38,375 nucleotides of DNA from Abditibacteriaceae bacterium (GTDB taxonomy: Bacteria > Armatimonadota > Abditibacteriia > Abditibacteriales > Abditibacteriaceae). Below are positions 1-31,219 of the stretch, piece after piece. A program made the translations under genes and the position numbers. Location of the stretch: contig JANPJS010000164.1 in the NCBI GenBank assembly GCA_031425655.1, forward strand, positions 1 to 38,375. The letters are read 5' to 3'. The notes beneath the pieces were generated by a model. It did no database searches. It was not told the origin of the DNA and saw only the letters and a list, made by a program, of their open reading frames with translations. The first letter of the stretch is position 1, and each line of letters starts with the position of its first letter.

Positions 1-92
1 CGGCAAAGTCGCCCTGCGGCGACTAAAAACTCAGGAAATAGTCCGCGCAGGCGGACTTTGCCGCGTGGTTGCCGCGAATTTATTCGCCCGGC
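1..92. repeat. REP-like palindromic element, probably truncated by the window edge
   Basis: Two short GC-rich hairpins, AGTCGCCCTGCGGCGACT and AGTCCGCGCAGGCGGACT, enclosed by CGGCAAAGT...ACTTTGCCG and followed by GCGAATTTATTCGC; intergenic. Confidence 0.6.
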
Positions 93-12200: not shown

Positions 12201-12287
12201 TTAAACACAAAGACACAGAGACACAAAGATTTTCAGATGTTAATTTTAAATCTGTTCTTCTTTGTGTCTTCGCGTCTTTGTGTTTAA
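12201..12287. repeat. 29-bp imperfect inverted repeat of 8-bp ACACAAAG units, same family as 11010-11081
   Basis: TTAAACACAAAGACACAGAGACACAAAGA ... TCTTTGTGTCTTCGCGTCTTTGTGTTTAA; includes the gatB stop codon. Confidence 0.85.
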
Positions 12288-13747
12288 TTCTGCATTTGCT
12301 TTAGCAAGTCGCGCAACAGCGTATTCACCAGAGCCGGATTGGCTTTGCCGCGCGATTCCTTCATCACGCTGCCGACGAGCGAGCCGAAGGATTTCTCCTT
12401 GCCGCCCAAGTAATCGGCGACGGCTTGCGCGTTGGCTTCGAGAACGCGGCGGCAAATCGCTTCGAGTTCGCCGCTATCGCTGATTTGCTCGATGCCTTTG
12501 GCTTTGACAATCGCGCTCGCGTCTTCGCCGGACGCGACCATTTCGTCGAAAACGTCTTTGGCCTGCTTGCCGCTGATGGCGCCCGAATCAATCAGTTTCA
12601 GCAAATCGCGCAGTTGATTCGGCTTTACCAACGCATCCGCGATGGTTTTACTTTGCGCGTTTAAGCGCCCCAAAAGCTCGTTGGCCAGCCAGTTGGCGAC
12701 GGCTTTTGGTTTGTCGTAATCGCTGGCGGCGCTCTCGAAATAATCGGCGATTTCGCGCGTGGAGGCCAGCACTTCGGCATCGTAAGGCGAAAGGCCCAAT
12801 GCTTCTTGAAAACGCTGGCGCCGGGCGCGCGGCAATTCCGGCATCGCATCGCGCACGCGGCCCAGCCACGCTTCGTCAATGTCCAGCGGCACTAAATCGG
12901 GTTCGGGGAAATAGCGGTAATCGTGCGCTTGTTCTTTCGAGCGCATCGGCTGTGTGGTGCCGCTGGCTTCGTCCCACAGCATCGTCATTTGCTGCACGAC
13001 GCCGCCCGAATCGAGTATCTTTTCCTGCCGCGCGATTTCGGCTCGCAGGCTGTTGGAAACCGACTTCATCGAGTTGAGATTCTTCACTTCGACGCGCGTG
13101 CCAAGTTCACTTTGGCCGTGCGGGCGCAGACTGACGCTGGCCTCGAACCGCAGCCGGCCCTGCTCCATTTTGCAATCGCTGACTTCCAAGTAGAGCAGCA
13201 ATTGGCGCAGCGCCAGCATATAAGCTTCGGCTTCTTCGATGCTTCTCATGTCCGGCAGCGACACCAATTCCAAAAGCGGAATGCCGCTGCGATTGAAGTC
13301 CACCAGACTCGAATCAGGGTCGCCGATGGCATCGCCGTGCTGGCTTTTGCCGGTGTCTTCTTCCATGTGAATGTCGTGCATTCCGACGCGCTTGACAACG
13401 GTTTCGCCGCCGTTCGGCACATCAATTTCGATGAATCCGCCTTCGCCCAGCGGCAAAAGGCGCTGCGAAATCTGATAGGCTTTGGGCAAATCGGGATAGA
13501 AGTAGTTTTTGCGCTCGAAAATGCACTTGGTATTGATCTTCGACCCGAACGCCAAAACCGCACGCAGCGAAAGCTCGACGCTCTTTTCATTCAGAACCGG
13601 CAGCGAACCGGGAAAACCCAGACACACCGGGCAAACCGCTGTATTCGGCGGCGCCAGAGCCACGTTCGGACAAGCGCAAAACTGCTTCGATTCAGTCAAC
13701 AATTCGGCATGGACTTCCATGCCGATCACGATTTCGTATTTGGACAT
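12284..13747 (-). CDS. gatB: Asp-tRNA(Asn)/Glu-tRNA(Gln) amidotransferase subunit B
   Basis: IGMEVHAEL, RKNYFYPDLPKAYQISQ, EEDTGKS, DFNRSG.PL.E, MRSKE.AHDYRYFPEPDL and a Yqey-like tail. Confidence 0.98.
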   Translation of the reverse strand: MSKYEIVIGMEVHAELLTESKQFCACPNVALAPPNTAVCPVCLGFPGSLPVLNEKSVELSLRAVLAFGSKINTKCIFERKNYFYPDLPKAYQISQRLLPLGEGGFIEIDVPNGGETVVKRVGMHDIHMEEDTGKSQHGDAIGDPDSSLVDFNRSGIPLLELVSLPDMRSIEEAEAYMLALRQLLLYLEVSDCKMEQGRLRFEASVSLRPHGQSELGTRVEVKNLNSMKSVSNSLRAEIARQEKILDSGGVVQQMTMLWDEASGTTQPMRSKEQAHDYRYFPEPDLVPLDIDEAWLGRVRDAMPELPRARRQRFQEALGLSPYDAEVLASTREIADYFESAASDYDKPKAVANWLANELLGRLNAQSKTIADALVKPNQLRDLLKLIDSGAISGKQAKDVFDEMVASGEDASAIVKAKGIEQISDSGELEAICRRVLEANAQAVADYLGGKEKSFGSLVGSVMKESRGKANPALVNTLLRDLLKQMQN

Positions 13748-13750
13748 GAT

Positions 13751-14050
13751 TTAATCTGCGCCTGTCAGCAATTGGCGCAATCTCCGCCCGGCGTAGCTTT
13801 CCGCGCCGCCGGGATAGGTTTCGATGAGTTCCAACAACTTTGCCTGCTCGTCGCGCGGCAGCGTCCGCACATCGTAATCAAAATGGCGCGAGGGGCCACA
13901 TTCTTCGAGATAGCCGCTATCGAGGAATCGCAACCAAACATTACACGTTTCCACGATGAAATCAGGCACGCGCGCCGCAACAATTAACTCGTTCCATTCA
14001 TGCTGCCAGCGCGCAAACGCTCGCTCTTCGGCGGTGCGACGAAAAGCCAT
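13751..14050 (-). CDS. Hypothetical protein (99 aa)
   Basis: Fills the gap exactly between the UPF0175-like gene and gatB (1- and 3-bp spacing); no family recognised. Confidence 0.65.
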   Translation of the reverse strand: MAFRRTAEERAFARWQHEWNELIVAARVPDFIVETCNVWLRFLDSGYLEECGPSRHFDYDVRTLPRDEQAKLLELIETYPGGAESYAGRRLRQLLTGAD

Positions 14051-14051
14051 T

Positions 14052-14312
14052 TCACGCCAATTCCTCAGCGACCATCGGTGCCGACCAAGGGGGAGCGATG
14101 CCAGCCGCCCGCGCGTGGCGCATCATTTCCGGCTGCGAGACAGCCGCCATTTCCGCTGCACGCGCCAGCGACACCAAGCCACGCTGATAGAGAAGCAACG
14201 ACTCCTGAATCTTCATCTGGGATAGGCCCAAGAGTAGCAATTCGCCCAAATGTTCCCGGTAGGGTTCAAATGCAGAAGCCTGTTCGTCTGGAATTTCCAC
14301 AACTGCTTTCAT
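14052..14312 (-). CDS. UPF0175 family small HTH protein (antitoxin-like)
   Basis: LYQRGLVSLARAAEMAAVS..E......GI matches the UPF0175 pattern. Confidence 0.7.
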   Translation of the reverse strand: MKAVVEIPDEQASAFEPYREHLGELLLLGLSQMKIQESLLLYQRGLVSLARAAEMAAVSQPEMMRHARAAGIAPPWSAPMVAEELA

Positions 14313-14429
14313 CGTATTTCGCCTCGCGTCTCTGGTGGCGCCAAGTCAGAGGAGCCGCCACCTTGTTTCGATGACTATTTCAACCCCGCACGTTGATTGT
14401 GCCGAAAATGCGCCGATTTACGGCACCCC

Positions 14430-14481
14430 AAAAAACTTAACCCCGTTTCCTCCTTGCGCGCAAGGGAGAAAGCGGGGTTAA
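14430..14481 (-). terminator. Rho-independent terminator of the 14500-15183 gene
   Basis: Long hairpin TTAACCCCG...CCTTGC GC GCAAGG...CGGGGTTAA followed by a T run on the minus strand. Confidence 0.75.
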
Positions 14482-14499
14482 ACAAGACAAAACGCGGAG

Positions 14500-15183
14500 T
14501 TACGCGGTTGGCGTGGTGGCTTGGGCAGCTTGCGGATGCACGCGGCGCATTTCGAGGTGGCTGGCGTTTTTCCACGCACTGAGCAACACGGCGTCTTTGG
14601 TGAAGCGGTTTTTGGCGTAGGCGTCCAGTTTCTTGACGAGTTTCACGCCTTTGGCGATCAGCGCGGCGATGGCGAGGACATCCTCGTGACGAGCGCCTTG
14701 ATGCGTATCCTGCTGCGTGTCGAAAGTCTCGGCGGCAACGATGTCGGCCTGTAAATCGGTCAGCACGTCGTCTTCCATGCCGTAATCCACGAGGAGAGTC
14801 ACTAATTCGGCCTCTTCGGAGAGAATTTTCTCCGCTGCCCGCGCCGCGCTGAGGATTTTGTCGTGAGCGCGGCTATCCGGCCTGCGAAACTTGCCGATCA
14901 GTTCGGGACGCTCGTCTTCATGCGCCCGCGCCACACGATCCATGCCGATGAGATCGAACAGCAGCGAGTCGAACACACCGCCCATTTGCGTGGTGACGGC
15001 GCGTGCAAAGCGGTCACTGGTTTCGCTGGTGCCCGCCAGTTCCGCAATTTGCGCCGCGATGCCCTGCAAGGCCGCCACATTCTGCCCGGCGGGCTTGTCG
15101 GCGGGAAAATAGCCGGCATTATTGCCCGCGAACGCCACAATGTGCCCAAACCGATCCTTTTGCGCCGAGTAAATGTCCTTCAC
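14500..15183 (-). CDS. Uncharacterised, probably all-helical protein (227 aa)
   Basis: GTG start at 15183 with a strong RBS (AAAAGGAG) and its own terminator; amphipathic helical pattern. Confidence 0.8.
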   Translation of the reverse strand: MKDIYSAQKDRFGHIVAFAGNNAGYFPADKPAGQNVAALQGIAAQIAELAGTSETSDRFARAVTTQMGGVFDSLLFDLIGMDRVARAHEDERPELIGKFRRPDSRAHDKILSAARAAEKILSEEAELVTLLVDYGMEDDVLTDLQADIVAAETFDTQQDTHQGARHEDVLAIAALIAKGVKLVKKLDAYAKNRFTKDAVLLSAWKNASHLEMRRVHPQAAQATTPTA

Positions 15184-15197
15184 GCCGTTTCTCCTTT

Positions 15198-15392
15198 TGG
15201 TAAGGCCAACCGGATAAAAGTAACGCCCGAATCGCTCAAAGTAACGCCCAACGGACGACAGTAAGGCCTCATCCAACCAAAGTAAGACTGCTTTCAACGC
15301 AAGTCAGCCCCATTCGAGCCACGTCACGCCGCCCACAACGAAAGTCAGATTTCGCCCCGCCAAAGTCAGGCGCAGCGAAAGAAAGTAAGCCA
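15198..15392. repeat. Array of ten AAGT(A/C)A(G/C) motifs with variable spacers, period 20-21 bp
   Basis: The core G lies at 15200, 15220, 15241, 15261, 15282, 15303, 15323, 15344, 15365 and 15385. Confidence 0.85.
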
Positions 15393-15452
15393 CCCAACAC
15401 CGAAAAATCGCTGCATCCAGCCACTTACACCGCCGGATGCCGCGATTTAACC

Positions 15453-16991
15453 CTACTCCGCCTTCGCAAATAATGCGAGGAATAGTCCTTTGCACAACAT
15501 TGGATGGTCGCCTACCGGCACTATGTTGATGTAAATAGGGCGGCCATCTTCCACCACACGCTTCACCGTTGTAGTGATGTCCTTCATAATGGTGGTGCCT
15601 TGTGACTCCTGATAATTGAAGCTGCCAGCATATTGTGGCACTTTGGTCGAGGTGCTTTCGTTGGCGCCGGGGAGGTTGACAAAAATACGAACCTCCAACA
15701 CCTCATCGTCTGCCAGCCCCTTGAATCCCACGCCCGCAACCCGAAGCATAGCCCGGTTTAACGCCGCCTTCCGAAATTGGCCAGCAGGACTCGCGCTTTC
15801 TGATATTACTGGTTTAGCTTTATCGGGGCCAATTTCGATAGGATAGCGCACATCGAAAAGATTTTCGCTCTGCTCACCACGTTGGCCAATTTGCAACTGA
15901 GTTTGGCGTTCATGTCCCTTTTCGGTAACCAAAATCCACATCATTTTGGCTAAGGCGGCTTCCGCCGTCATGTCCATGCCGCTGATGACGCCACGCTCCA
16001 AGAGGCCACTACTGGCCTCATATAATCCCATCTCCACGCCGCCCTGCACACATTGCGTCACGTTGAGCACAACCTTACCGCTATCAATGCTATCCCCTAT
16101 GACACTCACAAATTCCGGCGGGTCGCTGGGCGCATTGCCAGCACCGAAAGTGCGTAAAACTACACCTTCCAAGTCCGGCGACTTCAGCACAGTTTTCAGT
16201 TGTTTAGGCCCCAAGCCGGGAAAGATGCCGATGTCCATCACGTTGGCGTTGAGTTCACGGTGGATATAAAAAGGCGACTGCTCATTGTTGGCGGGAGGCC
16301 GCACCAAGTCTGTATTGATGCGAATATGCTCCCCAATTTCACCCAATCTGGGGTAATTGGGCGAATCAAACCCCCGCATTGATGTCGTGCTGACTTTGGT
16401 TGTGCGGTTGCCACGAAGCAGAGAATCCGCGAAGCAAATCGTCACCTCCGGCACTAACGGCAGTCCCGTCGCTTTGTAGCCCGCGATATAAATGGCGTTC
16501 ACCAAGTTTTGAATAGCGTCGCTGCGAAGTTGAAAAATCGGAAGTTGCGACCCGGTGATTACCACGGGCTTAGCCAAGTTCGCCAACAAAAACGACAACC
16601 CCGAAGCCGTGTAAGCCATGGTGTCAGTGCCATGTAGCACAACGAAACCATCAACGTCGTCGTATTTATCCTCAATGGCTTCCGCCATGTAAACCCAATG
16701 CTCGTGATTGACGTTGGACGAATCAAGCGGCGGGACAGGATTGCCTTTCTTGTCCGTCAAGCCACCAATTTCCCAATAAATCCCCTCTTTCTCGACGTCA
16801 CGGATAAAAGGTTCAAGGCTCTCTTTATTCGCTGGGATCAAAGGGCTGGCTGTGTTGTTTGGGTCACTCGGCACCATTCCAATGGTGCCACCTGTGTAAA
16901 TTATGAAGACCTTCGCCCTCACCGGTGGTTTTGGTTTGGTCTCTACCTGTGCATTGTCAGCCATCACGTCGTTACTCATGGGAACCTCCAA
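15453..16991 (-). CDS. ansA: Type I L-asparaginase with an additional ~130-aa C-terminal domain
   Basis: IYTGGTIGM, LDSSN, HGTDTMAYTAS, TGSQLP, RGNR..K, FGAGNAP and DMTAEAALAK. The start could be ATG 16979 instead. Confidence 0.92.
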   Translation of the reverse strand: MEVPMSNDVMADNAQVETKPKPPVRAKVFIIYTGGTIGMVPSDPNNTASPLIPANKESLEPFIRDVEKEGIYWEIGGLTDKKGNPVPPLDSSNVNHEHWVYMAEAIEDKYDDVDGFVVLHGTDTMAYTASGLSFLLANLAKPVVITGSQLPIFQLRSDAIQNLVNAIYIAGYKATGLPLVPEVTICFADSLLRGNRTTKVSTTSMRGFDSPNYPRLGEIGEHIRINTDLVRPPANNEQSPFYIHRELNANVMDIGIFPGLGPKQLKTVLKSPDLEGVVLRTFGAGNAPSDPPEFVSVIGDSIDSGKVVLNVTQCVQGGVEMGLYEASSGLLERGVISGMDMTAEAALAKMMWILVTEKGHERQTQLQIGQRGEQSENLFDVRYPIEIGPDKAKPVISESASPAGQFRKAALNRAMLRVAGVGFKGLADDEVLEVRIFVNLPGANESTSTKVPQYAGSFNYQESQGTTIMKDITTTVKRVVEDGRPIYINIVPVGDHPMLCKGLFLALFAKAE

Positions 16992-16999
16992 AACTGTGT

Positions 17000-18079
17000 T
17001 TAGTGCTGCTTTGTTGCACTATCCATTTCGCCTACATAAACCGTCGCCATCATCTCACGCACCGTGTCTATGCGCTCTTCCAATGAAACGATGTCTTCAA
17101 CAATCATTTTATCAACTTGGGCCAACACCCAACGAAACTTGGCGACTGCACAAGCCGCTGTCATGTTGCCGGTGGGGATGGCACCCGCCTCAATCGCCGC
17201 TCGACCCGGTGCGTAGGCAGTGTGCAACGTGGCATTCGCGGGGAATTGGCTGGTAATAATAACGGGCTTGTCCATGCTCGTTGCCTCACGAATGACGCTC
17301 TCGAAAGAAAACTCCCCTTCGTTAGGAACATTTCCAGCCCCGAATGACTGTAATATCACACCCTTGCATTTATCATCTGCCAGGCAATTGCTCAATAGCC
17401 CCGGCTCTAATCCAGGGATCAGAGATAGTTGTAGCACCCCATCGGAGAATTCACTTTTCAAATTGATCTCACCACGCTCACCGTTAGCCTTTTTGGTGGC
17501 CAAAGGATTGATGATGATATCCTCGGTGATATAAGCCAAGGGAAAGTAGGCTGGTGACTCAAAAGCATCGAATCGGCGCTCGTCCTTTTTCTGTGCTCGA
17601 CATCCACGAAAGACAAATTCGCCGAATGAAATCACCACCTCCGCAATGTCTTCGGTGGCGACTTTACAAGCTCGCAACAGATTAACGCGTGCGTCACCAT
17701 GGCGAACTTCGGGAATAGTTTGTGATCCCGTAAAGACGACAGGAAATTTGAGATTGGCGCCCAGCGCAAAAGCGACTGCCGATGCTGAAAAGTGCATCGT
17801 GTCCGTGCCATGTGCGATGACGAATCCCTTGTAACCATCACCTTTGCGCTGATAGACAGCATTCGCCATTGCCGCCCAATCATGATGATTGACGTTCGTG
17901 CTGTCCTTGTTCATCAATGGAACGAATTCTAAATCAACAATCTCGTCTAACTCCGGTGCTACGCGGAGAAAATCAGTGGGATCGGAAGGTGGTTTGAGAG
18001 TGCCGTCTGATAGACGGTTCATGCCAATCGTGCCACCTGTGTAAATCAAGCAAATCTTCGGTTTTTTCGCGTCAGTCAT
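17000..18079 (-). CDS. ansA: Type I L-asparaginase (second, divergent copy)
   Basis: IYTGGTIGM, KDSTN, HGTDTM, TGSQ, RGCRAQK, AFESP and FGAGNVP; ATG 18079 overlaps the upstream stop (ATGACTGA). Confidence 0.92.
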   Translation of the reverse strand: MTDAKKPKICLIYTGGTIGMNRLSDGTLKPPSDPTDFLRVAPELDEIVDLEFVPLMNKDSTNVNHHDWAAMANAVYQRKGDGYKGFVIAHGTDTMHFSASAVAFALGANLKFPVVFTGSQTIPEVRHGDARVNLLRACKVATEDIAEVVISFGEFVFRGCRAQKKDERRFDAFESPAYFPLAYITEDIIINPLATKKANGERGEINLKSEFSDGVLQLSLIPGLEPGLLSNCLADDKCKGVILQSFGAGNVPNEGEFSFESVIREATSMDKPVIITSQFPANATLHTAYAPGRAAIEAGAIPTGNMTAACAVAKFRWVLAQVDKMIVEDIVSLEERIDTVREMMATVYVGEMDSATKQH

Positions 18080-19799
18080 TCGGTTGGCTCTTCGTTTCTT
18101 CGGCGGAATGCTGCTCATCCGCGTTTGGATAGTTAATCACAAATGAAAAAACGCAATTGCCGTTGCCCGTTCTCATGCACAGTGGGTGTTCTACCTCTAC
18201 TTTGTCTTCTTCCTCACCAACAAGCGAAGCTATGACTCCCGCGATATAACCAGCAAATAGTCCGCACAAGTCCAGCTGATCTGGCGTCCGGCCCTCCGCC
18301 AAGAAATTGTCATCTACAAAGATTTTTCCTTCAATGAGGCGTCCCCGTGAATCCAAAATTAGATTATCCGGACGCAATGCGCCCCACCCCACGTTAGAAT
18401 CAAATTCACACCACTCGTCAATTTTTGTTGTGATTAATTCGTCTTGGGAGGCCGCCGCGAACGTTTGGCCAAACAGGTGGCCTGCCTTTCTTCCTCCACT
18501 CTCTAAAATTGGGACTGCTTGGCTTGGCACCAACTCGACGCAGTGGCTTAGAATCATGCGTAAAGTGTCAACTTTAAAAGCAACATTTCGTGCAGCGTCG
18601 TTTAAATGAATTAATCGGCTGTCATGTGGGGACCTTCGCATTTGGAAGACTTTGAAGCTCTCACCCACTTCTTCGGCAGAACCGGGCAAGCCAAGCTTAG
18701 CCCAGAGAATTTTTAGAGCTTGCTCGTTGTCCGGAATTGGCCGTCCGGACAGGTGTTCTACTACTTCGGGGCAAAGCCTGTTGACCAGCTTCAGAATTTC
18801 TCGTGATAGATTAACATTCTGCGAACTGCCATGCAAATCCAGCAGTAGCTGCTCCTTGATTTCTACCCCCCACTCCGAGTGTAGAACATGAGGATACGAA
18901 GGCTGTTTAAGAGCAGAAGGCTGTTCAAGATCAGGAGGCTGTTTAGGAGCAGAAGGCTGTTCAAGATCAGGAGGCTGTTTAGGAAATTGGAGAATGTCCG
19001 CGAAACCTTGGAATTCATCGTGTATCTCGCCAATTAATCCCGAACGCAAGTAGTCTTCCAGAGGAGGGATTCGCGCTAAAATCGGGACCACCTGAAAATC
19101 GGAGAGAGGTATGCCAAAATCCCTCTTAACCTGTTTCCTTTTCTCAACAGCAGAAGCTAAGGCACGGAAGACTTGCTTCGTTCCAGCAATGCCTATCGGA
19201 CTGTTAACAATGAAGCAAGCTACTCTATCAGCAAGTAGGAGATTGCTGGCCCCACCATATCGAGTGATTCCGGCTCTGGCGTCAATAAGGAGATAATCAG
19301 CTTTCAACTGGTGGCTGATAGCGCCCTTTAAATCGTAGAAGAATAATTTGATCTTCTTCTCACCACACATGGACATATCGTAAAGGTCTACCCACGCACG
19401 GTCGGAAAGATGATCCCAATAGCCCTCCTGCGATGGTTTGCCGGTCGGGATGAGCAGCAGTTGCCCGGCTCCTGACACGTTAGTTCCCTCAGCGTCATTC
19501 TTGCGAGTATCGGGTGGCCATAAGGGAATGCAATATTCCTTAATGGACGAAGACTCTTCAAAGGACGAGGGCGCCACTTTCTCATCTACCGGCAACCACC
19601 TCCACATGAAGTCAATGACGCCCGGTCGGTCAATTTCAAAAGGGTTTAGGCCGAAATTGATGGGCAATCCAGGCGCATCAAAATCAAAGTCCAAGAGCAC
19701 GACCTTGTAACCAAGTCGCGCAAGATAGACCCCGACGTTCGCCAGAGTAAAGGTTCGTCCGGCTCCGCCTTTATAAGAGTAAAAGGAAATTGTTTTCAC
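18072..19799 (-). CDS. ParA/MinD-like ATPase (KGGxGRT variant) fused to a C-terminal V4R-like domain
   Basis: FYSYKGGAGRT, DFDFDAPGL and YLLIDARAG at the N-terminus; GWG...C...AGYIAG...EVEH..C...G...CVF at the C-terminus. Confidence 0.85.
   Translation of the reverse strand: MKTISFYSYKGGAGRTFTLANVGVYLARLGYKVVLLDFDFDAPGLPINFGLNPFEIDRPGVIDFMWRWLPVDEKVAPSSFEESSSIKEYCIPLWPPDTRKNDAEGTNVSGAGQLLLIPTGKPSQEGYWDHLSDRAWVDLYDMSMCGEKKIKLFFYDLKGAISHQLKADYLLIDARAGITRYGGASNLLLADRVACFIVNSPIGIAGTKQVFRALASAVEKRKQVKRDFGIPLSDFQVVPILARIPPLEDYLRSGLIGEIHDEFQGFADILQFPKQPPDLEQPSAPKQPPDLEQPSALKQPSYPHVLHSEWGVEIKEQLLLDLHGSSQNVNLSREILKLVNRLCPEVVEHLSGRPIPDNEQALKILWAKLGLPGSAEEVGESFKVFQMRRSPHDSRLIHLNDAARNVAFKVDTLRMILSHCVELVPSQAVPILESGGRKAGHLFGQTFAAASQDELITTKIDEWCEFDSNVGWGALRPDNLILDSRGRLIEGKIFVDDNFLAEGRTPDQLDLCGLFAGYIAGVIASLVGEEEDKVEVEHPLCMRTGNGNCVFSFVINYPNADEQHSAEETKSQPND
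18900..18984. repeat. In-frame 36-bp tandem repeat (~2.4 copies) encoding PKQPPDLEQPSA
   Basis: AGGCTGTTTA(A/G)GAGCAGAAGGCTGTTCAAGATCAGG twice, plus a partial third copy. Confidence 0.9.
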
Positions 19800-19808
19800 T
19801 TTGTCGCC

Positions 19809-20219
19809 TTACCTTCCATTGACTCCTGCCGAATCCACACCCAGATTACCAAACGGAAATCTCCTTTGTTGTAGATGTGGATTAGCAGGAGTAGAACTAG
19901 TGACCGCTTCCGAAGTCGATTTCGTTTTCTCCGGCGTGGACGCGATAGGCGGACTCGTGTCCACTACCAAAACTGCTTCAGGTGCGAGCTTGGAAGACGA
20001 CGCCGGTTGCGTTTCTGCGGGCGCTGGGTTTTCACTTTCTTCAGGTTGCTTCTTAGGGGCCTTGGAGTCCAAACCAACGAGAGGGCCCAACCGGTCTTGC
20101 TCCGGACTTTCTTTGATGAAACTCAAAACTTTTTGCTTGGCCCGGAATGCATCAAAGAGGAACCACAGCCCGGCAACAAAACACACGACTGCAAGGACGA
20201 TAGAAATGATTGTCTCCAT
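19809..20219 (-). CDS. Membrane-anchored hypothetical protein with a Ser/Thr/Pro-rich tail
   Basis: One N-terminal TM helix; 9-11 bp spacing to both neighbours. Confidence 0.65.
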   Translation of the reverse strand: METIISIVLAVVCFVAGLWFLFDAFRAKQKVLSFIKESPEQDRLGPLVGLDSKAPKKQPEESENPAPAETQPASSSKLAPEAVLVVDTSPPIASTPEKTKSTSEAVTSSTPANPHLQQRRFPFGNLGVDSAGVNGR

Positions 20220-20230
20220 GCTAAAATTTC

Positions 20231-20725
20231 TCAGATTTGGCCTGTTTGAATTAAATCTGACAGATGCTCAGTCGTTTTCCATCGCAGCCAATATGCATAA
20301 CATACAACTACAAATCCGATTCCAATAGTTCCAATGACATACCCAGTCAGCATCGCTTCGATTGGTTTAGGGGGTGGATAGGACTGTTGCATAGCAAAGG
20401 ACTTTATGCTCCAATATATGCTCAGTAAGATCACGCTTAACACATAGGCCAATGACGGCTGATCGTCGAACCATGCTTGCTGTTCCAAGCCATATCGCTT
20501 TTGATCGTATGCGATGTCGGTGCCAACTCCAAGAACGAGCATAGCACCGAAAAGAAGCAAATTTCCGTCCGCAAATGCTCTCTGAAAAGGGTATGGAGTT
20601 CCATTCACAATGAATTTGATCGCAACCATTATCATGAAGATGATGGGCAATACGACTCTATAACGGAACCAAATTTTATCTTTGAAGCGCAAAAGATAGA
20701 TTTTATTAGCTGCGTCGTTAGGCAT
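20231..20725 (-). CDS. Hypothetical four-TM membrane protein
   Basis: Four hydrophobic segments; AAAGGAGG RBS before the ATG. Confidence 0.75.
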   Translation of the reverse strand: MPNDAANKIYLLRFKDKIWFRYRVVLPIIFMIMVAIKFIVNGTPYPFQRAFADGNLLLFGAMLVLGVGTDIAYDQKRYGLEQQAWFDDQPSLAYVLSVILLSIYWSIKSFAMQQSYPPPKPIEAMLTGYVIGTIGIGFVVVCYAYWLRWKTTEHLSDLIQTGQI

Positions 20726-20815
20726 CTATTCCTCCTTTGGGCGCAAGTAAAGTTTCTGCTTGAACAGGTTGCAATCCGCCGAATTTGTGCTCACGCTTCC
20801 AAAATCAAACAGCCG

Positions 20816-22285
20816 CTACTTTCGTATCGTGTCTGCTCTTTGCTCATGCCACTCCGTCGCCATCTCGTAAGCGTGCGCCGTTCGCAGCAGCGTGCTTTCG
20901 CTGAGCAGATTTCCGATCAATTGTAAGCCAAGCGGCATACCGTCTTGAAACCCGCACGGAAGAGACAACGCAGGAACGCCGGCCATGTTGACGGGGATAG
21001 TGGCGGAGTCGGCCATCTTCATACTCATTTGGTCGCCGGATTTCTCGCCGATACGATAGGCGATACCGGGTGCGGTGGGTGTGGCCAGCATGTCGCACTT
21101 TTCAAAAGCTTTTTCAAAGTCGCGGCGAATGAGCGTGCGCACTTTTTGCGCCTTGAGATAGTAGGCATCGTAGAATCCACTGCTCAATGCGTGGGTTCCG
21201 ACCATGATGCGGACGCGCACTTCGGGGCCAAAACCAGAGGCGCGAGACTTGGAATACATTGCTACGATGTCGTCGCCCGGTTCGGCCACGCGCAGGCCGT
21301 ATTGCACACCGTCATACTTAGCCAAATTCGAAGAAGCCTCACATGGGGCAATAATATAATACGCCGCTAAAGCGTAGTCAAGGCTTGGCATCGAAATTTC
21401 CACAGCCTCAGCGCCCAGTTCGCAGAGTTTGTCCACGGCGGCGCGCACGGCGTCGGCCATGTAGCCTTCGATGCCTTGCGCGAAAAACTCTTTCGGCACG
21501 CCGATGCGAAGGCCTTTCACGTCGCCGGTCAGGGCGTCGAGATAATTGGGCAAAGGCCGATCAATCGAAGTCGAATCGCGGCGGTCGTGGCCGGCGATGG
21601 TTTGCAACAGCAGCGCGGTATCGCGCACATCGTTGGCAATCGGGCCGATTTGGTCGAGCGACGACGCATAAGCGATTAAACCGTAGCGCGAAACCAAGCC
21701 ATACGTCGGTTTCAGGCCGACGCAGCCGCAATAAGCCGCCGGTTGGCGAATCGAGCCGCCGGTGTCGGAACCAAGCGCAAGAGGCGCTTCCAACGCGGCC
21801 ACGGCAGCCGTTGAGCCGCCCGAACTGCCGCCGGGCACGCGATTCAAATCCCACGGATTGCGCGTCGGGAAAAAGGCCGAGTTTTCCGTTGAACTGCCCA
21901 TCGCAAACTCGTCCATGTTCGCTTTGCCGATGACGACCGCGCCGTCGGCGGCGAGGCGCTCGACGACGTGCGCGTCGTAGGGCGGCACGAAGTTTTCGAG
22001 CATCTTCGACGAACAGGTGGTTTTCACGCCGCGCGTGCAAAGCAGGTCTTTGACCGCGATGGGCACGCCGCCTAAAGCGCCGATGTCCTCGCCCGCCGCC
22101 ACGCGACGATCCAGCGATTCGGCGCGCCGCCGCGCTTCTTCGGGCAAAACCGTGACGAACGCTTTCACACGCTCTTCGACCGCTTCGATGCGCCGCAAAA
22201 ACTCGTCGGTGACTTCGCGGCACGAGAGTTTCTTTTGTTTAATCTGCTGCGCCAGTTGAAAGGCGCTGAATTCGATGAGGGACAT
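20816..22285 (-). CDS. gatA: Asp-tRNA(Asn)/Glu-tRNA(Gln) amidotransferase subunit A
   Basis: Amidase signature VKD, GKANMDEFAMGSS, PGGSSGGS, GSDTGGSIRQPA and YDAYYLKAQKVRT. Confidence 0.98.
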   Translation of the reverse strand: MSLIEFSAFQLAQQIKQKKLSCREVTDEFLRRIEAVEERVKAFVTVLPEEARRRAESLDRRVAAGEDIGALGGVPIAVKDLLCTRGVKTTCSSKMLENFVPPYDAHVVERLAADGAVVIGKANMDEFAMGSSTENSAFFPTRNPWDLNRVPGGSSGGSTAAVAALEAPLALGSDTGGSIRQPAAYCGCVGLKPTYGLVSRYGLIAYASSLDQIGPIANDVRDTALLLQTIAGHDRRDSTSIDRPLPNYLDALTGDVKGLRIGVPKEFFAQGIEGYMADAVRAAVDKLCELGAEAVEISMPSLDYALAAYYIIAPCEASSNLAKYDGVQYGLRVAEPGDDIVAMYSKSRASGFGPEVRVRIMVGTHALSSGFYDAYYLKAQKVRTLIRRDFEKAFEKCDMLATPTAPGIAYRIGEKSGDQMSMKMADSATIPVNMAGVPALSLPCGFQDGMPLGLQLIGNLLSESTLLRTAHAYEMATEWHEQRADTIRK

Positions 22286-22289
22286 AGAT

Positions 22290-22370
22290 AGTTGGGTGGT
22301 TTGGTTGTCTGGTGGTTTGGTTGCTCGGTGGCGAAATCAACCACCTAACAACCTAACCACCAGACAACCT
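22290..22370. repeat. Octamer tandem-repeat palindrome (GGTGGTTT/GGTTGTCT ... TAACCACC/AGACAACC)
   Basis: Fills the gatC-gatA gap and abuts the gatC stop codon. Confidence 0.8.
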
Positions 22371-22689
22371 ATTCCGCTTCCACGACGCGCGGCACTTGAA
22401 ACATCGCGGCAGCTTGTTCGGGCGCGTTTTGCAAGGCGGCTTCGGGCGTCAGGCCGGGGCGCGAAACATCGGCGCGCAGCACGTTGACAACCGGCAAAAC
22501 GTGATCGGTCGGTTCCACGCCTTCGGTGTCGAGTTCCTTTAATTTCTCGAAGTAACCGAGAATCTGCGACAATTCAGTCGCCGCGCGATCTCGTTCGCTT
22601 TCCGAGAGGTGCAAACGCGATAAATTGGCGATGTAATTGACTTCGTCGTCGGTTAGGCGCAGGTTCGGCTGCGGATTTTGCTCGCTCAT
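22369..22689 (-). CDS. gatC: Amidotransferase subunit C
   Basis: IANLSRL, LDTEGVEPT, LRAD and NAPE....FQVPRV; directly upstream of gatA. Confidence 0.96.
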   Translation of the reverse strand: MSEQNPQPNLRLTDDEVNYIANLSRLHLSESERDRAATELSQILGYFEKLKELDTEGVEPTDHVLPVVNVLRADVSRPGLTPEAALQNAPEQAAAMFQVPRVVEAE

Positions 22690-25956: not shown

Positions 25957-26685
25957 TCAATCTCCAGAGAAAAAAGCATGGGCAAAAATTCCCAGCAATA
26001 CAACCCCAACTAAGGCAGGCAGCCAGAGCGACATCCAAAAGCTAACGCTGCTCCAAAAACTGAGAATCAGCAAACTGCTGCCGATAACGCCAACCGGCGG
26101 AATTTCTCTACCGATGCGCGGCGCCAATCGCCACAGCAGCCACGCGGCGACGCTGCCCGTAAGCATCCAGCCCGCGAAATTCTGCGCCGGCACGCCGTAA
26201 AAAACTCCCGGAGCCTCGAAACGCCAAAAGCCCTGCGCGACTGCCGCCGGATCGAGCACGATATCTATCGCCACCAGCAACGCGCCGCTCACTAAAATTC
26301 CCGCCCACGCGGTTGCCGTCCAACGCCGCGCGATGGCAGTTGCGGCACAAACTAACGGCGTCCACGCGAAAGGCACAGTCCAGGGCACGATGCCGAACAA
26401 AAGCACACCAATTTTTTCGCCGTATGTGAAACGGCCATAAGGCCAGCCGGTGATAATCGCTGCGCTTTCCAGCAGCAGCCCAAAAACGCCCAAAACCGTT
26501 AGCAAGATCACGCCGTCGCGCCAACCCAGCCACCTCACAACAGCGCGGTAGCAGGGCCACGCAAAAATCACCACAAAGAGCGCCGAAATGTGCGCTAATT
26601 CGGGCCTTACCGGAATTTTCGCCACAAAAAAACCACAAAGCGCCTGCATTGCCATCGCAGTTGCCCACAATGCGCGTGACGGCAT
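25957..26685 (-). CDS. cruF: Carotenoid 1,2-hydratase, CruF family
   Basis: E......GWPYG.F.Y, VPW.VPFAW, D.VLDPAAV..GFW and GVP.QNF.GW. Start uncertain (ATG 26685 chosen; TTG 26766 would overlap the divergent gene). Confidence 0.88.
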   Translation of the reverse strand: MPSRALWATAMAMQALCGFFVAKIPVRPELAHISALFVVIFAWPCYRAVVRWLGWRDGVILLTVLGVFGLLLESAAIITGWPYGRFTYGEKIGVLLFGIVPWTVPFAWTPLVCAATAIARRWTATAWAGILVSGALLVAIDIVLDPAAVAQGFWRFEAPGVFYGVPAQNFAGWMLTGSVAAWLLWRLAPRIGREIPPVGVIGSSLLILSFWSSVSFWMSLWLPALVGVVLLGIFAHAFFSGD

Positions 26686-26738
26686 TTTTTTGCTGTCCGA
26701 AGCCGCTTTTTCGCCGCCGGCTTCGCTAAAATTAAGAA

Positions 26739-27608
26739 GTGCCGCCTTATTCTCCAACACAGTCAAAACTTTCCCCCAGCCAATTACTTCGTGTCAGCCG
26801 GCCCCGTTTCTGGATTTATCTTTTCGGCCCTTACATCGTGGGCCTTGCCGCCGGAGCGCAAAAGCTCGACGATTTCTTCGGTTGGCCGCTACTCGTTTTT
26901 GCGCTTTATTTTACGCTGCCGGCCAACCTTCTCGTTTACGGCGTCAACGATATTTTCGATTACGAAACCGACCGAGATAACGCCAAAAAAACCGGCTACG
27001 AAAGTCTGGTGCCGCCCGATCAACGCACCTCGCTCTGGACGGCGATTGCGTTTTGCAATCTGCCGTTTCTGCCTGCGCTGGCCTTTCTTTCGCCGGCGGC
27101 GATGCTGGCGTTTTTCGGCTTCGCGCTCTGCGGTGTTTTCTACTCGGCGCCGCCACGTTTCAAAACCAAACCACTGCTCGATTCCACCTCGAACGTGCTT
27201 TATATTTTCCCCGGCGTTTTGGCTTTCTATTTAGCCGGCGGAAGAACACTTTCGCCATCACTTTTTGGTGCCGCGTGGTGCTGGGCAATGGCCATGCACG
27301 CTTATTCCGCCGTTCCCGACATCACTGCCGACAAAAATAATGGCTTGCACACTGTCGCCACATTTCTCGGTTTTCGCAGCACCCTTTTGCTTTGTCTGGC
27401 CCTTTATTTAGCGGCGGCTTTTCTTTCCTTTTCAACATTGGGCGCTTTATCCATCGCGCTGGGCGCTATTTACGCCGGTCTCATGCTTTTTTCGTTAACG
27501 CGGCGCGATGAACAGCAGTTACTTCGCGTTTACCGGTTTTTTCCACTCGTCAACACCGCGTGCGGCGCCGCCTTGTTTTTCGCGGCCTGCGGGCGCAAGT
27601 TCTTCTAA
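26739..27608 (+). CDS. lyeJ: UbiA-family prenyltransferase, lycopene elongase LyeJ/CrtEb type
   Basis: SRPRFWIY, YGVNDIFDYETD, YSAPP.RFK..P.LDS.SN and AVPDI.AD...GL.T.A; carotenoid cluster context. Confidence 0.82.
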   Translation: MPPYSPTQSKLSPSQLLRVSRPRFWIYLFGPYIVGLAAGAQKLDDFFGWPLLVFALYFTLPANLLVYGVNDIFDYETDRDNAKKTGYESLVPPDQRTSLWTAIAFCNLPFLPALAFLSPAAMLAFFGFALCGVFYSAPPRFKTKPLLDSTSNVLYIFPGVLAFYLAGGRTLSPSLFGAAWCWAMAMHAYSAVPDITADKNNGLHTVATFLGFRSTLLLCLALYLAAAFLSFSTLGALSIALGAIYAGLMLFSLTRRDEQQLLRVYRFFPLVNTACGAALFFAACGRKFF

Positions 27609-27609
27609 T

Positions 27610-29124
27610 TTACAGCGTTGATAAATGCCCTGCCGATTTATCGCCGATAATGCGTTTATAAGCCAATTCGGCGCTGATAAGGCAAATCGGCATTCCGATT
27701 CCGGGATTGGTGTTGGCGCCGACATAAAATAGATTCGTCAGTTTTTTGCTCTTGTTATTAGGCCGCAGAATCGCCGTTTGATTGATGGTGTGCGCTAATC
27801 CCAACGCTGAGCCTTGCAGGTTGTTGTAGCGTTCCCGAAAATCACGGCCCCAGAATACGCGGCGATAAACAATTCGCTCGCGCAAATTCGGAATATTCAG
27901 TTCGCGCTCCAGTGTATCCAGCGTTTTTTCGGCGACGCGTTCAAGCTGCTCCGGCGTTGCTTCCAAACCGGGCGCGACCGGCACCAAAACGAATAGATTT
28001 TCCTGTCCCGGTGGCGCCACACCTTCATCGCTGACGCTGGGCGCGCACACGTAAATAGAAGGGTCGGTCGGCCAACACGGCGTATCGAATATCTCGGCGA
28101 AATTCGCTTTCCAATCCTGCGAAAAAATCAAATTATGATGCGCGATGCCCGGCACTTTGTCTTTAAGTCCAAGATATAAAATAAACGCCGAAGGCGCTAA
28201 AGTGCGCGTTTCCCAATAGCGTTTTGAATGGCTGCGATGCGGTTTTCCCAATAATTTGCTTTCGGTGTGATGAATATTCGAGTTCGCCACGATTAAATCG
28301 GCGGAATATTCGGCACCGTTTTCCAATCGCACACCGCGCGCCTTGCGGTTTCGTCCCGTTAAAATGCGCTCGACGGGCGCATCGGTGAAATATTCAACGC
28401 CCAATTTCTCGCCGATATTTCGCAGCGCTTTCACGATTTCATAGATGCCGCCGCGCGGATAAAACACGCCCATATTAAAATCTATATGGCTCATGATGTT
28501 ATAAAGCGCGGGCGTGTTATAAGGCGAGCTGCCCAAAAAAACCAGTTGATATTCCATGATTTTCTGGACTTCATCGGTCGAGAAATACTTCGCCACATAA
28601 TCGCTCATGCGCGCGAAAACTTCCAATTTACGGCCTTCAGTTGCGACCTGTTTATTGAAAAAATCGAAAACCGTATCGTAATTTTTATACATAAAACCGC
28701 CCAGCGCGATTTCGTATTGGTTTTTCGATTTCTCCAGATATTCTTTTAATTTATCGCCGGAACCGGCCTCGATTTCTTCAAAGGTCGCCAAATCGCGCCT
28801 TAAATCAGAATAAAAATCGTAATGACGGCCCGTATCCTTGAAGTGAATGCGATAGGAAGGCGAAAGCCGGATTAAATCGAGATGATCTTCGACGCGTTCG
28901 CCGATGAGCGAAAAAAAGCTCTCGAAGACATCGGGCATCAAATACCACGACGGCCCCATGTCGAAAGTGAAACCTTGTGCCGAAAACGTGTTGGCAACGC
29001 CGCCCAACGTGTCGTTTTTTTCAAATAATTGAACGGCGTAGCCTTTTTTGGCCAGCAAACACGCTGTCGCCAGACCGCCGATGCCGCCACCAATAATAGC
29101 GGCTTTATTCGTTCCTTCAATCAC
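27610..29124 (-). CDS. crtI: Phytoene desaturase family protein (CrtI, or CrtD-like)
   Basis: IIGGGIGGL FAD motif, FDMGPSWYLMPDVF and PGIGMPICLISA. Confidence 0.9.
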   Translation of the reverse strand: MIEGTNKAAIIGGGIGGLATACLLAKKGYAVQLFEKNDTLGGVANTFSAQGFTFDMGPSWYLMPDVFESFFSLIGERVEDHLDLIRLSPSYRIHFKDTGRHYDFYSDLRRDLATFEEIEAGSGDKLKEYLEKSKNQYEIALGGFMYKNYDTVFDFFNKQVATEGRKLEVFARMSDYVAKYFSTDEVQKIMEYQLVFLGSSPYNTPALYNIMSHIDFNMGVFYPRGGIYEIVKALRNIGEKLGVEYFTDAPVERILTGRNRKARGVRLENGAEYSADLIVANSNIHHTESKLLGKPHRSHSKRYWETRTLAPSAFILYLGLKDKVPGIAHHNLIFSQDWKANFAEIFDTPCWPTDPSIYVCAPSVSDEGVAPPGQENLFVLVPVAPGLEATPEQLERVAEKTLDTLERELNIPNLRERIVYRRVFWGRDFRERYNNLQGSALGLAHTINQTAILRPNNKSKKLTNLFYVGANTNPGIGMPICLISAELAYKRIIGDKSAGHLSTL

Positions 29125-30019
29125 GATTTTCTCTCCACGCGCCCACCGTCAGCGCCAGTTTTTCCGGCAAAGTTGTGCGCGCCCGTCCTGCAAACACATC
29201 CCATTCGCGCGCTTCCAGTTTGTCTAAGATTGCGCGATAAAGCGTGCCGGCCAGGCGCACCGGCAAGCGACCTTCGGGCGCCAGCATCGGGACGCCTAAA
29301 TTCGATTCGTTATAAAGCGTGTGCGCCCGCTTCGCTTGAAATCGCGCGAACTCGGCAAAGCGGCTCGAAAACCGTCTTGCAGCAATGTCTTCTTCACTCA
29401 AGCCGAAACGTGCGAGTTCATCTAACGGCATATAAATTCGCCCGCGCTCTATGAAATCTTCGTCAATATCGCGCAGAAAATTCGTGAGCTGCATCGCGTA
29501 GCCAAGCTGCGCCGCGTGATGCAAAGCGCGTTCGTCGCTGAAACCGACAACGTGCGTCATCATCAATCCGACGACCGCTGCCGAACCATACATATAGTTT
29601 TCCAACTCGGCGTAGTCGGCGTAACGCGTCTTTTCCAAATCGCTTTCCATCGCCGCTAAAAAGCTTTCGCTGTGCTCGAAGGGAACTGCATAGCGATGGA
29701 AAACATAAGACGTGACGCGCAAAATCGGGTCTTCCGAATCGCCATCGCGGTAGGCGCGCTCCCAATTTCGGCGCCATAAATCCAGTCGGCGCCGCACTTC
29801 CAGCGCTTCCTCGACATCTTGCGGCGCGGCACTGTCTACGATTTCATCGGGCACGCGAAAAAACGCGTAAAGCGCATACGTCGCCAATCGCGTTTCGCGT
29901 GGGAAGAGTTGCGACGCGAAATAATAACTCGTGCCGTGCTTGCGATGCAAGCGCCGCGCAATCTCAAAATCCGGCAGCAATTCTTTCGGATGCTCGATAG
30001 TCTCGCTTATAGTTTTCAT
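29117..30019 (-). CDS. crtB: Phytoene synthase
   Basis: LYAFFR.PDEIVD, YMYGSAAVVG and MQLTNFLRDIDED...GRIYMP motifs. Confidence 0.95.
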   Translation of the reverse strand: MKTISETIEHPKELLPDFEIARRLHRKHGTSYYFASQLFPRETRLATYALYAFFRVPDEIVDSAAPQDVEEALEVRRRLDLWRRNWERAYRDGDSEDPILRVTSYVFHRYAVPFEHSESFLAAMESDLEKTRYADYAELENYMYGSAAVVGLMMTHVVGFSDERALHHAAQLGYAMQLTNFLRDIDEDFIERGRIYMPLDELARFGLSEEDIAARRFSSRFAEFARFQAKRAHTLYNESNLGVPMLAPEGRLPVRLAGTLYRAILDKLEAREWDVFAGRARTTLPEKLALTVGAWRENRD

Positions 30020-31176
30020 GAGGGCCGCCTTTGCATCAGCATAAGTAATTCTTCAAACGCGCCGCGATGGCGCGCCGGCACCGGCGATTGCTCCAGCAAC
30101 ATTTGGGCGCGCTTCAAATGTCGTTCGATGTCGGCGCGCCCTCGCGCTAAAGCGCCCGATGCTTCAAATACGCTCAAAACCCGGCAGCGGTCGGCAGGCG
30201 TGAGATCGGCGCCCAATAAATCGCGCAGTTGCTCGCATTGGGCAGGCGTGCCGCACTCGAAAACGTATTGCGTGAAATAAGTGTGCTGCCCTTCACGCAA
30301 ATCCGCGAACAGAGTTTTACGCGTGGTTTGAGGCGTGCCCGTCAGGTCAAGCAAATCATCCTGAATCTGAAAAGCAAGCCCGACCGCAAGGCCGAATTCG
30401 TGACAGAATTTTTCGGCCTCCACGCCGCGTCCGGCTAATGCGGCGCCGATTTGCAGAGGACGAATAAACGTGTAAGACGCGGTTTTCAAGAGCATTTTCT
30501 GCTCAATATCCGCGAAAGTCACGGTTTCGCGCGCCATCATGTCCACATCCAACATTTCGCCCAAAACCACTTCGTCAACCATGCGCGAAAAGTATCGCCG
30601 CGCACAGTTATGCGCCGCGCCCTCGAAATCACGATTGGCATGAAACGCTTCCTGCGCCCAGCCGAACAGCATATCACCTAATAATAGCGCTTGCGCTTGA
30701 CCGATGCGCTCGGCGTCGCACGAAAAATCCTGCTTTCCAAGATGTGCGGCGACGGCGCGCTGAACTGTCGGCAAGCCGTGTCGCTCCGTCCCGTTATCAA
30801 TAATGTCGTCGTGAATCAGACAAAACAAATGAAACAATTCCAGCGAAACCAATAAGCGCATCACCTTCGGGTCGTCGTGTCCGCCCAAAGCGCGATACAT
30901 CAAATACGCCGCATAGGGTCGCACGCGTTTACCACGCGCCGACGCCATGCGCCGAGGGTAATCGCATAGCAGTTCCAGCGATGGGGCCGCGCCAGACAGC
31001 GCGAAACTCTGCGTCTTTTCAGCAATGAATTGCTCCAAAGGCGCCTGAAAATGCTGTTGAAACGCGCCGAGATCGAGCAACGTATGCTCGCGCGCCTTCG
31101 GCCTGTAGGAAGACGACACGCGCACAGGCCACACGATTCCCAGTGCCGGCTTCATAAACGCAAGAGCAGTTTTCAT
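30016..31176 (-). CDS. crtE: Polyprenyl (geranylgeranyl) diphosphate synthase
   Basis: GKRVRP, LIHDDIID...RHG, KTASY and FQIQDDLLD; GAGGAG RBS ahead of ATG 31176. Confidence 0.9.
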   Translation of the reverse strand: MKTALAFMKPALGIVWPVRVSSSYRPKAREHTLLDLGAFQQHFQAPLEQFIAEKTQSFALSGAAPSLELLCDYPRRMASARGKRVRPYAAYLMYRALGGHDDPKVMRLLVSLELFHLFCLIHDDIIDNGTERHGLPTVQRAVAAHLGKQDFSCDAERIGQAQALLLGDMLFGWAQEAFHANRDFEGAAHNCARRYFSRMVDEVVLGEMLDVDMMARETVTFADIEQKMLLKTASYTFIRPLQIGAALAGRGVEAEKFCHEFGLAVGLAFQIQDDLLDLTGTPQTTRKTLFADLREGQHTYFTQYVFECGTPAQCEQLRDLLGADLTPADRCRVLSVFEASGALARGRADIERHLKRAQMLLEQSPVPARHRGAFEELLMLMQRRPS

Positions 31177-31219
31177 AATGGAGGCCACTCCTCAAATAAA
31201 CTTTTCGCCTCGCACTAAT

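Follow-up and report, generated by a model that had tools for sequence, protein, structure and literature searches.

Organisation of the locus

The stretch under study, from contig JANPJS010000164.1 of an Abditibacteriaceae bacterium (38,375 nt at full length, here called the window), carries on its minus strand, at 15453-20725, a block of five genes in which a ParA-like ATPase fused to a V4R domain is followed by two different type I asparaginases. As judged from its sequence features, this module is a member of the V4R-asparaginase conflict systems, computationally predicted weeks earlier in one paragraph of a preprint (Li, Burroughs and Aravind, October 2026, section 36; bioRxiv 10.64898/2026.10.19.760177). 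In order of transcription, the genes and the one repeat within them are as follows.

20231..20725, minus strand: membrane protein with four transmembrane (TM) helices by hydropathy, 164 amino acids (aa)
19809..20219, minus strand: protein with a single N-terminal TM helix by hydropathy and a low-complexity tail, 136 aa
18072..19799, minus strand: ParA/MinD-like ATPase fused to a V4R domain, 575 aa (NF047398 and fold search)
18898..18984, inside the ATPase gene: in-frame 36-bp tandem repeat, 2.4 copies, encoding a Gln/Pro-rich spacer
17000..18079, minus strand: short type I asparaginase, AsnS, 359 aa (Pfam PF00710 and PF17763)
15453..16979, minus strand: long AnsA-type asparaginase, AsnL, 508 aa (structure model and fold search)

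As called, the five co-directional open reading frames (ORFs) are separated by 11, 9, -8 and 8 bp. The AsnS ATG that overlaps the ATPase stop by 8 bp gives the 359-aa form, and an upstream ATG would give 372 aa. AsnL would measure 512 aa if started at TTG 16991; the ATG at 16979 is the more likely start because GGAGG precedes it, which yields 508 aa, the length of the database copy P0094, and widens the gap to 20 bp. With this one adjustment, the compact arrangement described in the initial annotation holds, as do its two membrane proteins and its low GC content: the block has a GC of 0.495 against 0.567 for the 5.98-Mb genome, a value equally low in 0.6% of 1,890 windows of equal size, and third-position GC is 0.45-0.60 in the block genes against 0.70 in gatA/gatB. 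The block is imported. Two features had been overlooked, namely its position inside the gatC-gatA...gatB operon and an additional C-terminal domain of about 138 aa in AsnL.

The ATPase-V4R fusion and its membrane partners

The ATPase scores above the cut-off of the NCBIfam family NF047398 (KGGVGR-motif variant AAA ATPase; 104.9 against 90 bits). In the structure model (mean pLDDT 84.9), residues 1 to ~350 make up the ParA part, which matches MinD (4v02) with a Z score of 22.7 in the fold search, and residues ~384-560 make up the V4R part. The Pfam V4R match stays below its cut-off (20.5 against 31 bits, E 5e-4), and modelling confirms the predicted fold: residues 384-560 align with PoxR (5fru; Z 15.7, root-mean-square deviation (rmsd) 3.5, 167 aligned) and DmpR (Z 15.6, rmsd 3.0, 167 aligned), and the same region matches the V4R structure 2oso (Z 12.7). 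The fusion proposed in the initial annotation is thus borne out by family and fold alike. The domain resembles the sensors of XylR, DmpR and PoxR in fold, although here it lies behind ParA instead of before a sigma-54 AAA+ domain, and identity is 13%. Its residues D401, N405, T412, W463, F466, D467, G471 and G473 are the same in all 33 aligned members; the Asp, Asn and Thr among them would fit a polar ligand and, because such polar residues are included, the ligand is probably not a phenol. A search with the V4R domain alone returned no matches. The 36-bp repeat is absent from the aligned homologues, and close relatives of the ATPase domain (P0006-P0056) carry other C-terminal regions, in ~600-aa forms, one with a weak TPR match, and in unannotated ~840-aa forms.

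The nucleotide-binding motifs of the ATPase read S8-Y-K10-G-G-x-G-R15, D37-x-D39 and P43-G44, with R15 in 30 and P43 in all 33 of the aligned members. In section 12 of the preprint, ConB2, an immune branch of ParA, is defined by a Walker A motif in which Arg replaces Lys, together with a PG after sensor-1 (10.64898/2026.10.19.760177), a signature that the window ATPase carries. Section 36 describes V4R fused to ParA with a coupled asparaginase-family gene, proposes a messenger bound by V4R, and notes that TIR, HEPN or 2TM effectors can replace ParA on related V4R domains (10.64898/2026.10.19.760177). In the window, the fold search likewise places V4R C-terminal to ParA, and the asparaginase gene is coupled to the ATPase gene by the 8-bp overlap. 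The initial annotation did not recognise the combination as a named system, a statement that section 36 overtakes. The twin-enzyme core, the lid-like domain and the alternative subtypes described below go beyond the text of the preprint, the main text of which contains 'asparaginase' six times (section 36 and the legend of Figure 6) and 'AAA_35' not once. That main text is also silent on two distinct asparaginases, a tyrosinase-type C-domain, the AAA_35/NACHT subtypes, YbaK-racemase partners, the 4-TM/1-TM genes and a gat/asnA link, some of which its figures or supplements may show.

Among known systems, those of the TIR-ParA/FxsC type and PCTM share with the window an ATPase domain of the NF047398 kind, but their C-terminal partner is TIR/TPR/STAND or a TM segment, whereas here it is V4R and the membrane proteins are separate genes. 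PCTM, defined as ParA fused to a C-terminal TM segment (section 19 of 10.64898/2026.10.19.760177), is ruled out, as the C-terminal domain of the ATPase is a soluble V4R. A PADLOC hit to PDC-M28 was also rejected: residues 2-46 alone match the 438-position PDC-M28B model, and no other gene of the block matches PADLOC.

The 164-aa 4-TM protein has no match in Pfam, NCBIfam or PADLOC, and an atlas search returned only unnamed clusters with low recognition. It is the best non-training match (E 2.4e-5 among 4,580 ORFs) to a profile built from three 4-TM proteins picked by eye (L105, L138 and L124). It counts as a distant homologue of the 4-TM proteins encoded ahead of ParA-V4R elsewhere, and is regarded as a candidate sensor or membrane effector. 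The 136-aa protein has no homologue by phmmer; what is kept is its position, not its sequence, since a 1-TM gene directly precedes ParA-V4R in four further loci (L096, L099, L124, L133). A multi-TM and/or a 1-TM gene lies upstream in L096/L147, L099, L105/L138, L124, L133 and L156, and other genes occupy this position in L001 and in the relative G001. By this comparison, the membrane genes are a recurring accessory and not a universal part.

Two divergent asparaginases

AsnS and AsnL are 35% identical over 333 aa and are the sole tblastn matches for either in the host genome. Both retain the catalytic motifs (GGT-Thr, Ser, HGTD and Lys), all but the Ser listed in the initial annotation, which had also seen their divergence from each other; the full set, including a Tyr in a loop of the C-domain, is kept in 43-47 of 47 aligned members of both enzymes. 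In fold and in these residues they resemble the type I asparaginases (E. coli AnsA, 5dnc and the Thermococcales enzymes) and archaeal GatD, with Z scores of 39-44, the AsnL model (pLDDT 91.3) reaching 43.6 against guinea-pig ASNase1 (5dnc). They differ from them in being encoded by two divergent tandem genes, in the jelly-roll domain, in the NTPase and TIR fusions found in the family, and in falling below the TIGR00519, AnsA and GatD cut-offs. A housekeeping AnsA (PRK09461/TIGR00519) was rejected for AsnL, which scores 277.9 against 376 and 254.6 against 260.5 bits and bears the extra domain, and for AsnS (169.8 against 376 and 229.7 against 260.5 bits). GatD (TIGR02153) was rejected for both (204.3 and 152.5 against 324 bits), and no GatE partner is present: tblastn with GatB finds gatB alone. 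In a tree, the short enzymes (51 rows) form one side of a branch with 100% SH-aLRT support, a separation that is partly by construction. The long enzymes group with AnsA-type controls, and hence the pair, by phylogeny, is not a recent duplication.

The extra domain of AsnL is a jelly-roll (residues ~375-512 in the 512-aa frame). It matches the C-terminal domain of a Ralstonia tyrosinase (7xio; Z 14.8, rmsd 2.4, 122 aligned), the next rows being below 10. The PPO1_KFDV profile matches it weakly, below cut-off (E 0.004), as it does 4 of 8 family members, and the atlas gives DUF7868/PPO1_KFDV at 0.82-0.84 as a lead only. In plant polyphenol oxidase (PPO), latency is maintained by the corresponding C-terminal domain, which shields the active site (PMC6997208). 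By analogy, the AsnL domain, which is here joined to an asparaginase and not to a tyrosinase/PPO, is a possible latency lid or off-switch.

In guinea-pig ASNase1, Tyr308' of the active site is supplied by the neighbouring subunit (PMC12128190). The C-domain Tyr of AsnS and AsnL is, by position, taken as its counterpart and, because both enzymes keep this Tyr, a mixed AsnS/AsnL oligomer would be feasible. Complex prediction for AsnS with ParA-V4R gave 0.40, 0.00 and 0.00 in separate runs against a mark of 0.32, and counts neither for nor against an interaction.

A constant enzyme pair with exchangeable partners

A motif scan with the short enzyme yielded at least 80 rows from at least 79 loci, all motif-bearing members, which form 69 clusters at 90%; with L001 and L030 these become 71, and all cluster counts given here are among the matches listed. 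A scan with the full long-enzyme alignment has generic motifs and returned at least 600 rows, the family-like loci among the matches listed being L001-L004, L030 and L039; its remaining 74 loci serve as a single-asparaginase control, which is weak and consists mostly of Bacteroidota. The short enzyme occurs together with the long one in 62 of the 69 clusters; among those with 2.5 kb or more on each side, the figure is 24 of 25. In 50/71, the long gene comes directly after the short one. AsnS and AsnL distances are correlated (Mantel r 0.63, 51 pairs, kin not being independent). ParA-V4R lies beside the short enzyme in 21/69. In a Chlorobium metagenome-assembled genome (MAG), the order ATPase-short-long recurs, with a short enzyme that is 61% identical, between two Wadjet jetCD copies and with a GNAT toxin-antitoxin pair in the context. 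In P0215 (918 aa), ParA, a V4R-like region (by motif, not by Pfam) and a short asparaginase are joined in a single chain. The adjacency search suggested in the initial annotation thus finds the ATPase-V4R beside paired asparaginases elsewhere; as regards proximity to defence islands, the Wadjet copies stand on the positive side and the lack of a PADLOC system match in the window block on the other.

On sequence comparison, the twin-enzyme pair is the constant core, around which switch and sensor parts are swapped. V4R is present in 30/71 clusters (type V, the type of the window, as ParA-V4R in 21/69), a racemase fold in 22/71 and both together in 0/71. AAA_35 occurs in 19/71, 15 of these with the racemase fold and none with V4R. 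In type R, the order is HTH-AAA_35, AAA_35 fused to the short enzyme, the long enzyme, and a YbaK-like/racemase fusion. Outside the window, the AsnS clade is most often fused behind an AAA_35/STAND-like NTPase: among the best 150 short-enzyme representatives, 86 are at least 650 aa long and 81 of these have a Walker A in their N-terminal part; AAA_35 matches are present in the scanned subset of these long forms. In L108 and L129, NACHT-pentapeptide pairs take the place of the NTPase. Long enzymes bear a fused TIR domain once in L098 and twice in L127, and the short enzyme of L174 is fused to DUF4062; further defence-type neighbours include SLATT, RelA-like genes and transposases.

The fusion of a YbaK-like domain (hhalign E 7.6e-6, probability 84%) to an Asp/Glu-racemase fold (L113:8638-10020 and ten similar genes) is apparently an undescribed sensor-deacylase. 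Eight of the 11 full-length fusions have other residues at both catalytic Cys, which 4 of the 5 stand-alone racemases retain. Among the loci, a complete V4R fusion to something other than ParA occurs once (359 aa, with an N-domain that lacks a convincing Pfam match). It is found in L118:8455-15180, where it is accompanied by long and short asparaginases and a RelA/SpoT-like gene, with a C5 methylase and Vsr alongside. In six clusters (L149:4394-5164, L152, L161, L131, L140, L158), an unannotated family of ~250 aa follows the long asparaginase, often with YbaK.

The gatA-gatB slot and neighbouring amidation genes

The block occupies a variable slot, at 13747-20816, between gatA and gatB of the host operon, together with three cargo genes of host-like GC that lie outside the module.

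22369-22689: host gatC, upstream of gatA
20816..22285, minus strand: host gatA, co-directional, 90 bp upstream of the block
13751..15297, minus strand: other slot cargo before gatB (a 265-aa ORF, an 86-aa UPF0175 gene and a 99-aa ORF)
12284-13747: host gatB, at the other end of the slot

Between gatA and the block, the minus strand shows no terminator-like match, and the two are possibly co-transcribed; promoter and terminator counts are at chance level. The slot is a hotspot for cargo in this family, since unrelated genes fill it with 1.2-4 kb in the 4/4 other relatives examined (G002, G003, G005 and G007). By eye, the cargo includes restriction-endonuclease-like and DUF4337-like genes in G002 and an SDH/ClpP-like protease gene in G007; G002 is without the module, yet a similar gene of ~100 aa precedes its gatB (also by eye). 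G001, of the same genus, has the ATPase (50% identity) after gatA and, on another contig, the long enzyme (60%) ahead of gatB. The distribution of the module is rare and patchy: of the 60 relatives, one contains part of it, G054 carries a single ordinary asparaginase, and 58 have no type I asparaginase match. In 200 further genomes of the phylum of G062, the short-enzyme profile has no match at E 1e-90; the plasmid collection gave no match at E 1e-50, and the phage collection gave four matches of 30-36% identity.

A link to amidation and Asn/Gln genes extends beyond the window, with gatA, gatB, gatD/E or asnA in 9/71 clusters against 0/74 loci of the weak control, 13 of which have class II synthetase matches. 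L154 and L165 were dropped from eleven initial Asn-pathway clusters as LysRS-like cross-matches (L154 being confirmed as LysRS). Five clusters (L096/L147, L134, L150, L159, L163) have GatA-like genes next to the module and no gatB within the retrieved sequence, three keeping the K/S/S triad and two having Thr at the second position; the triad of the host GatA is intact. An asnA gene adjoins the module in L099/L146 and L110, and other neighbours include Asp, Lys, Ser and Arg synthetases and YbaK. The link may mark a functional tie, or may in part reflect use of a hotspot.

Three of these loci have particular arrangements. In L147:1-18205 (= L096), a GatA-like gene, the module, radical SAM genes and a transporter lie between apparent prophage terminase and portal genes, which were identified by eye, the terminase being without an NCBIfam match. 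In L099:1-8011, a type V module sits between archaeal-type gatD and asnA/gatE, which suggests an archaeal host. In L151:2403-7615, a lone short asparaginase stands upstream of aspS-gatC-gatA-gatB, the GatA of which has lost all three triad residues.

With regard to the tRNA synthetases, the host genome (97% complete) has no asparaginyl- or glutaminyl-tRNA synthetase (AsnRS, GlnRS) above cut-off, so that host translation would not depend on free Asn. It does have AsnB. AsnRS is present in one of five other genomes (G062, type R).

Functional interpretation

A role in biological conflict is likely for the module as a whole, given the TIR, NACHT and Wadjet contexts, the methylase with Vsr, the rarity and the low GC. 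The module reading of the initial annotation therefore stands as far as it describes a conserved, mobile unit of conflict type, whose gene triple recurs in distant taxa, and falls where it took the combination to be unrecognised. How the module would act is best described, tentatively and at somewhat below an even chance, as a mobile anti-invader relay in which the AsnS/AsnL pair makes the signal, amide hydrolysis giving an aspartate-type product that is passed to V4R and on to ParA. We infer every step from trigger to outcome. At rest, AsnS and AsnL, in mixed oligomers, would be kept inactive by the tyrosinase-type lid at the C-terminus of AsnL, by the NTPase, or by both. Infection or an envelope disturbance, perhaps sensed via the 4-TM/1-TM pair, would release hydrolysis of Asn, Gln or a related amide; V4R would bind the aspartate-type product and switch the fused ParA into an active multimer, and this step would bring about the arrest. 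In the sister subtype, the dead Asp/Glu-racemase fold would bind the same product and control the fused YbaK-like tRNA deacylase. This relay is the best single reading because two unrelated ligand-binding folds substitute for one another beside an enzyme pair that stays constant, because one of these is an Asp-binding fold that lost catalysis, and because starvation for free Asn would not directly stop host translation. Both the preprint, in its proposal of a V4R-bound messenger, and the exclusive distribution of V4R and racemase lean towards asparaginases as signal makers upstream of V4R-ParA.

Several points weigh against the relay. As an abundant metabolite, L-Asp is badly suited to be a messenger, except in the case of a special substrate. 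The position of AsnS at the C-terminus of AAA_35 fusions, where STAND sensors sit, and the TIR domain on AsnL would equally fit a sensor or scaffold. The lid idea draws on fold likeness, PADLOC gives no system match beyond the Walker A region, and the long enzyme is also found without the short one (L002-L004). In addition, 15/71 clusters, many of them short contigs, are without V4R, racemase or AAA_35, and the mutual exclusion of V4R and racemase follows two tree lineages, which brings it near to a single evolutionary event.

The direction of control could also be reversed, with ParA-V4R or AAA_35 switching the asparaginase pair on, so that Asn/Gln is drained and translation or nucleotide synthesis is starved in the invader and the infected cell, assisted by accessory GatA-like amidases and Asp racemase. 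The fusion of the short enzyme to a P-loop NTPase in 81/86 long representatives and to ParA-V4R in P0215, the latency-type domain on AsnL, and the gatB-less GatA-like genes beside five clusters, apparently inside a prophage in L147, would suit such a depletion effector; active racemases would drain Asp further, and G062, unlike the window host, does have AsnRS. It is nevertheless doubtful, with a real share of the probability: in a host without AsnRS or GlnRS above cut-off only a Gln drain would bite, the racemases in fusions are mostly dead, and AsnA, which remakes Asn, adjoins the module in L099/L146 and L110. A literature search on asparagine depletion in bacteriophage abortive infection found nothing. 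Direct deamidation of Asn-tRNA was set aside, as type I asparaginases bind the free alpha-carboxylate of their substrate. These enzymes are also allosteric oligomers, a property that would fit a sensor or scaffold that signals how much Asn/Gln is present, or binds a protein of the invader, and brings together the fused or adjacent TIR, DUF4062, AAA_35 or ParA, catalysis merely resetting the signal. The short enzyme behind AAA_35 and the TIR-AsnL and DUF4062-AsnS fusions agree with it, but the near-complete retention of the catalytic set (43-47/47 in both enzymes) and the separate ligand-binding domain (V4R or racemase fold) in 52/71 clusters make it quite improbable.

Of similarly low probability is a role outside defence, as a regulated nitrogen or ammonia supply for tRNA-dependent amidation (a GatD-like donor for GatB/GatE) or as stress-controlled amide catabolism. 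The gat/asnA neighbours (9/71 against 0/74 weak controls), the position inside gatCAB in the window and in G001, the lone short enzyme of L151 before a gat operon with a triad-less GatA, and the higher score of AsnS with GatD models (204 bits) than with AnsA (170 bits), none of which reaches the cut-off, point that way; the intact triad of the host GatA, the unrelated slot cargo in 4/4 other relatives and the lack of a T-box or other riboswitch in the Rfam scan (with one tRNA in L150) argue against it, as do the TIR, NACHT and Wadjet contexts, rarity and low GC, which are atypical of core metabolism. That the genes are chance neighbours in an insertion hotspot, an idea encouraged by the nature of the slot and by the 1-TM gene without a detectable homologue, can practically be dismissed, and is refuted for the three core genes by the recurrence of the same order in distant taxa and by the parts found as fusion proteins.

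A broader picture, which we consider rather unlikely in its entirety, would make the twin asparaginases the signal-making core of a broad immune family with an amino-acid-derived messenger instead of a nucleotide, a latency domain derived from tyrosinase, a reader that is either V4R, with ParA as output, or a dead aspartate-racemase fold that unleashes a YbaK-like tRNA deacylase, and Gat/AsnA neighbours that buffer host Asn/Gln. If the signal relay is true, prokaryotes would here use an amino-acid derivative in immune signalling; if depletion is true, Asn/Gln starvation would serve as defence. The locus and its relatives outline a gene set for the predicted system, with both asparaginases plus the two membrane genes, the dead racemase-fold partner points to a candidate ligand class, the tyrosinase-type domain is a candidate off-switch, and the family represents unexplored, possibly latent and heteromeric asparaginases.

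Other features of the window

Elsewhere in the window, a carotenoid-type cluster (polyprenyl synthase, phytoene synthase, desaturase and a cruF-like gene) is located at 25957-31188, with UbiA on the opposite strand, and the region from 27.5 to 29.5 kb is also low in GC. A lone 24-nt match to Rfam CRISPR-DR28 at 39-62 (minus strand), just above threshold, is probably due to chance. Two overlapping ORFs with WD40/beta-propeller matches at 34307-36261 (minus strand) are possibly one frameshifted gene.

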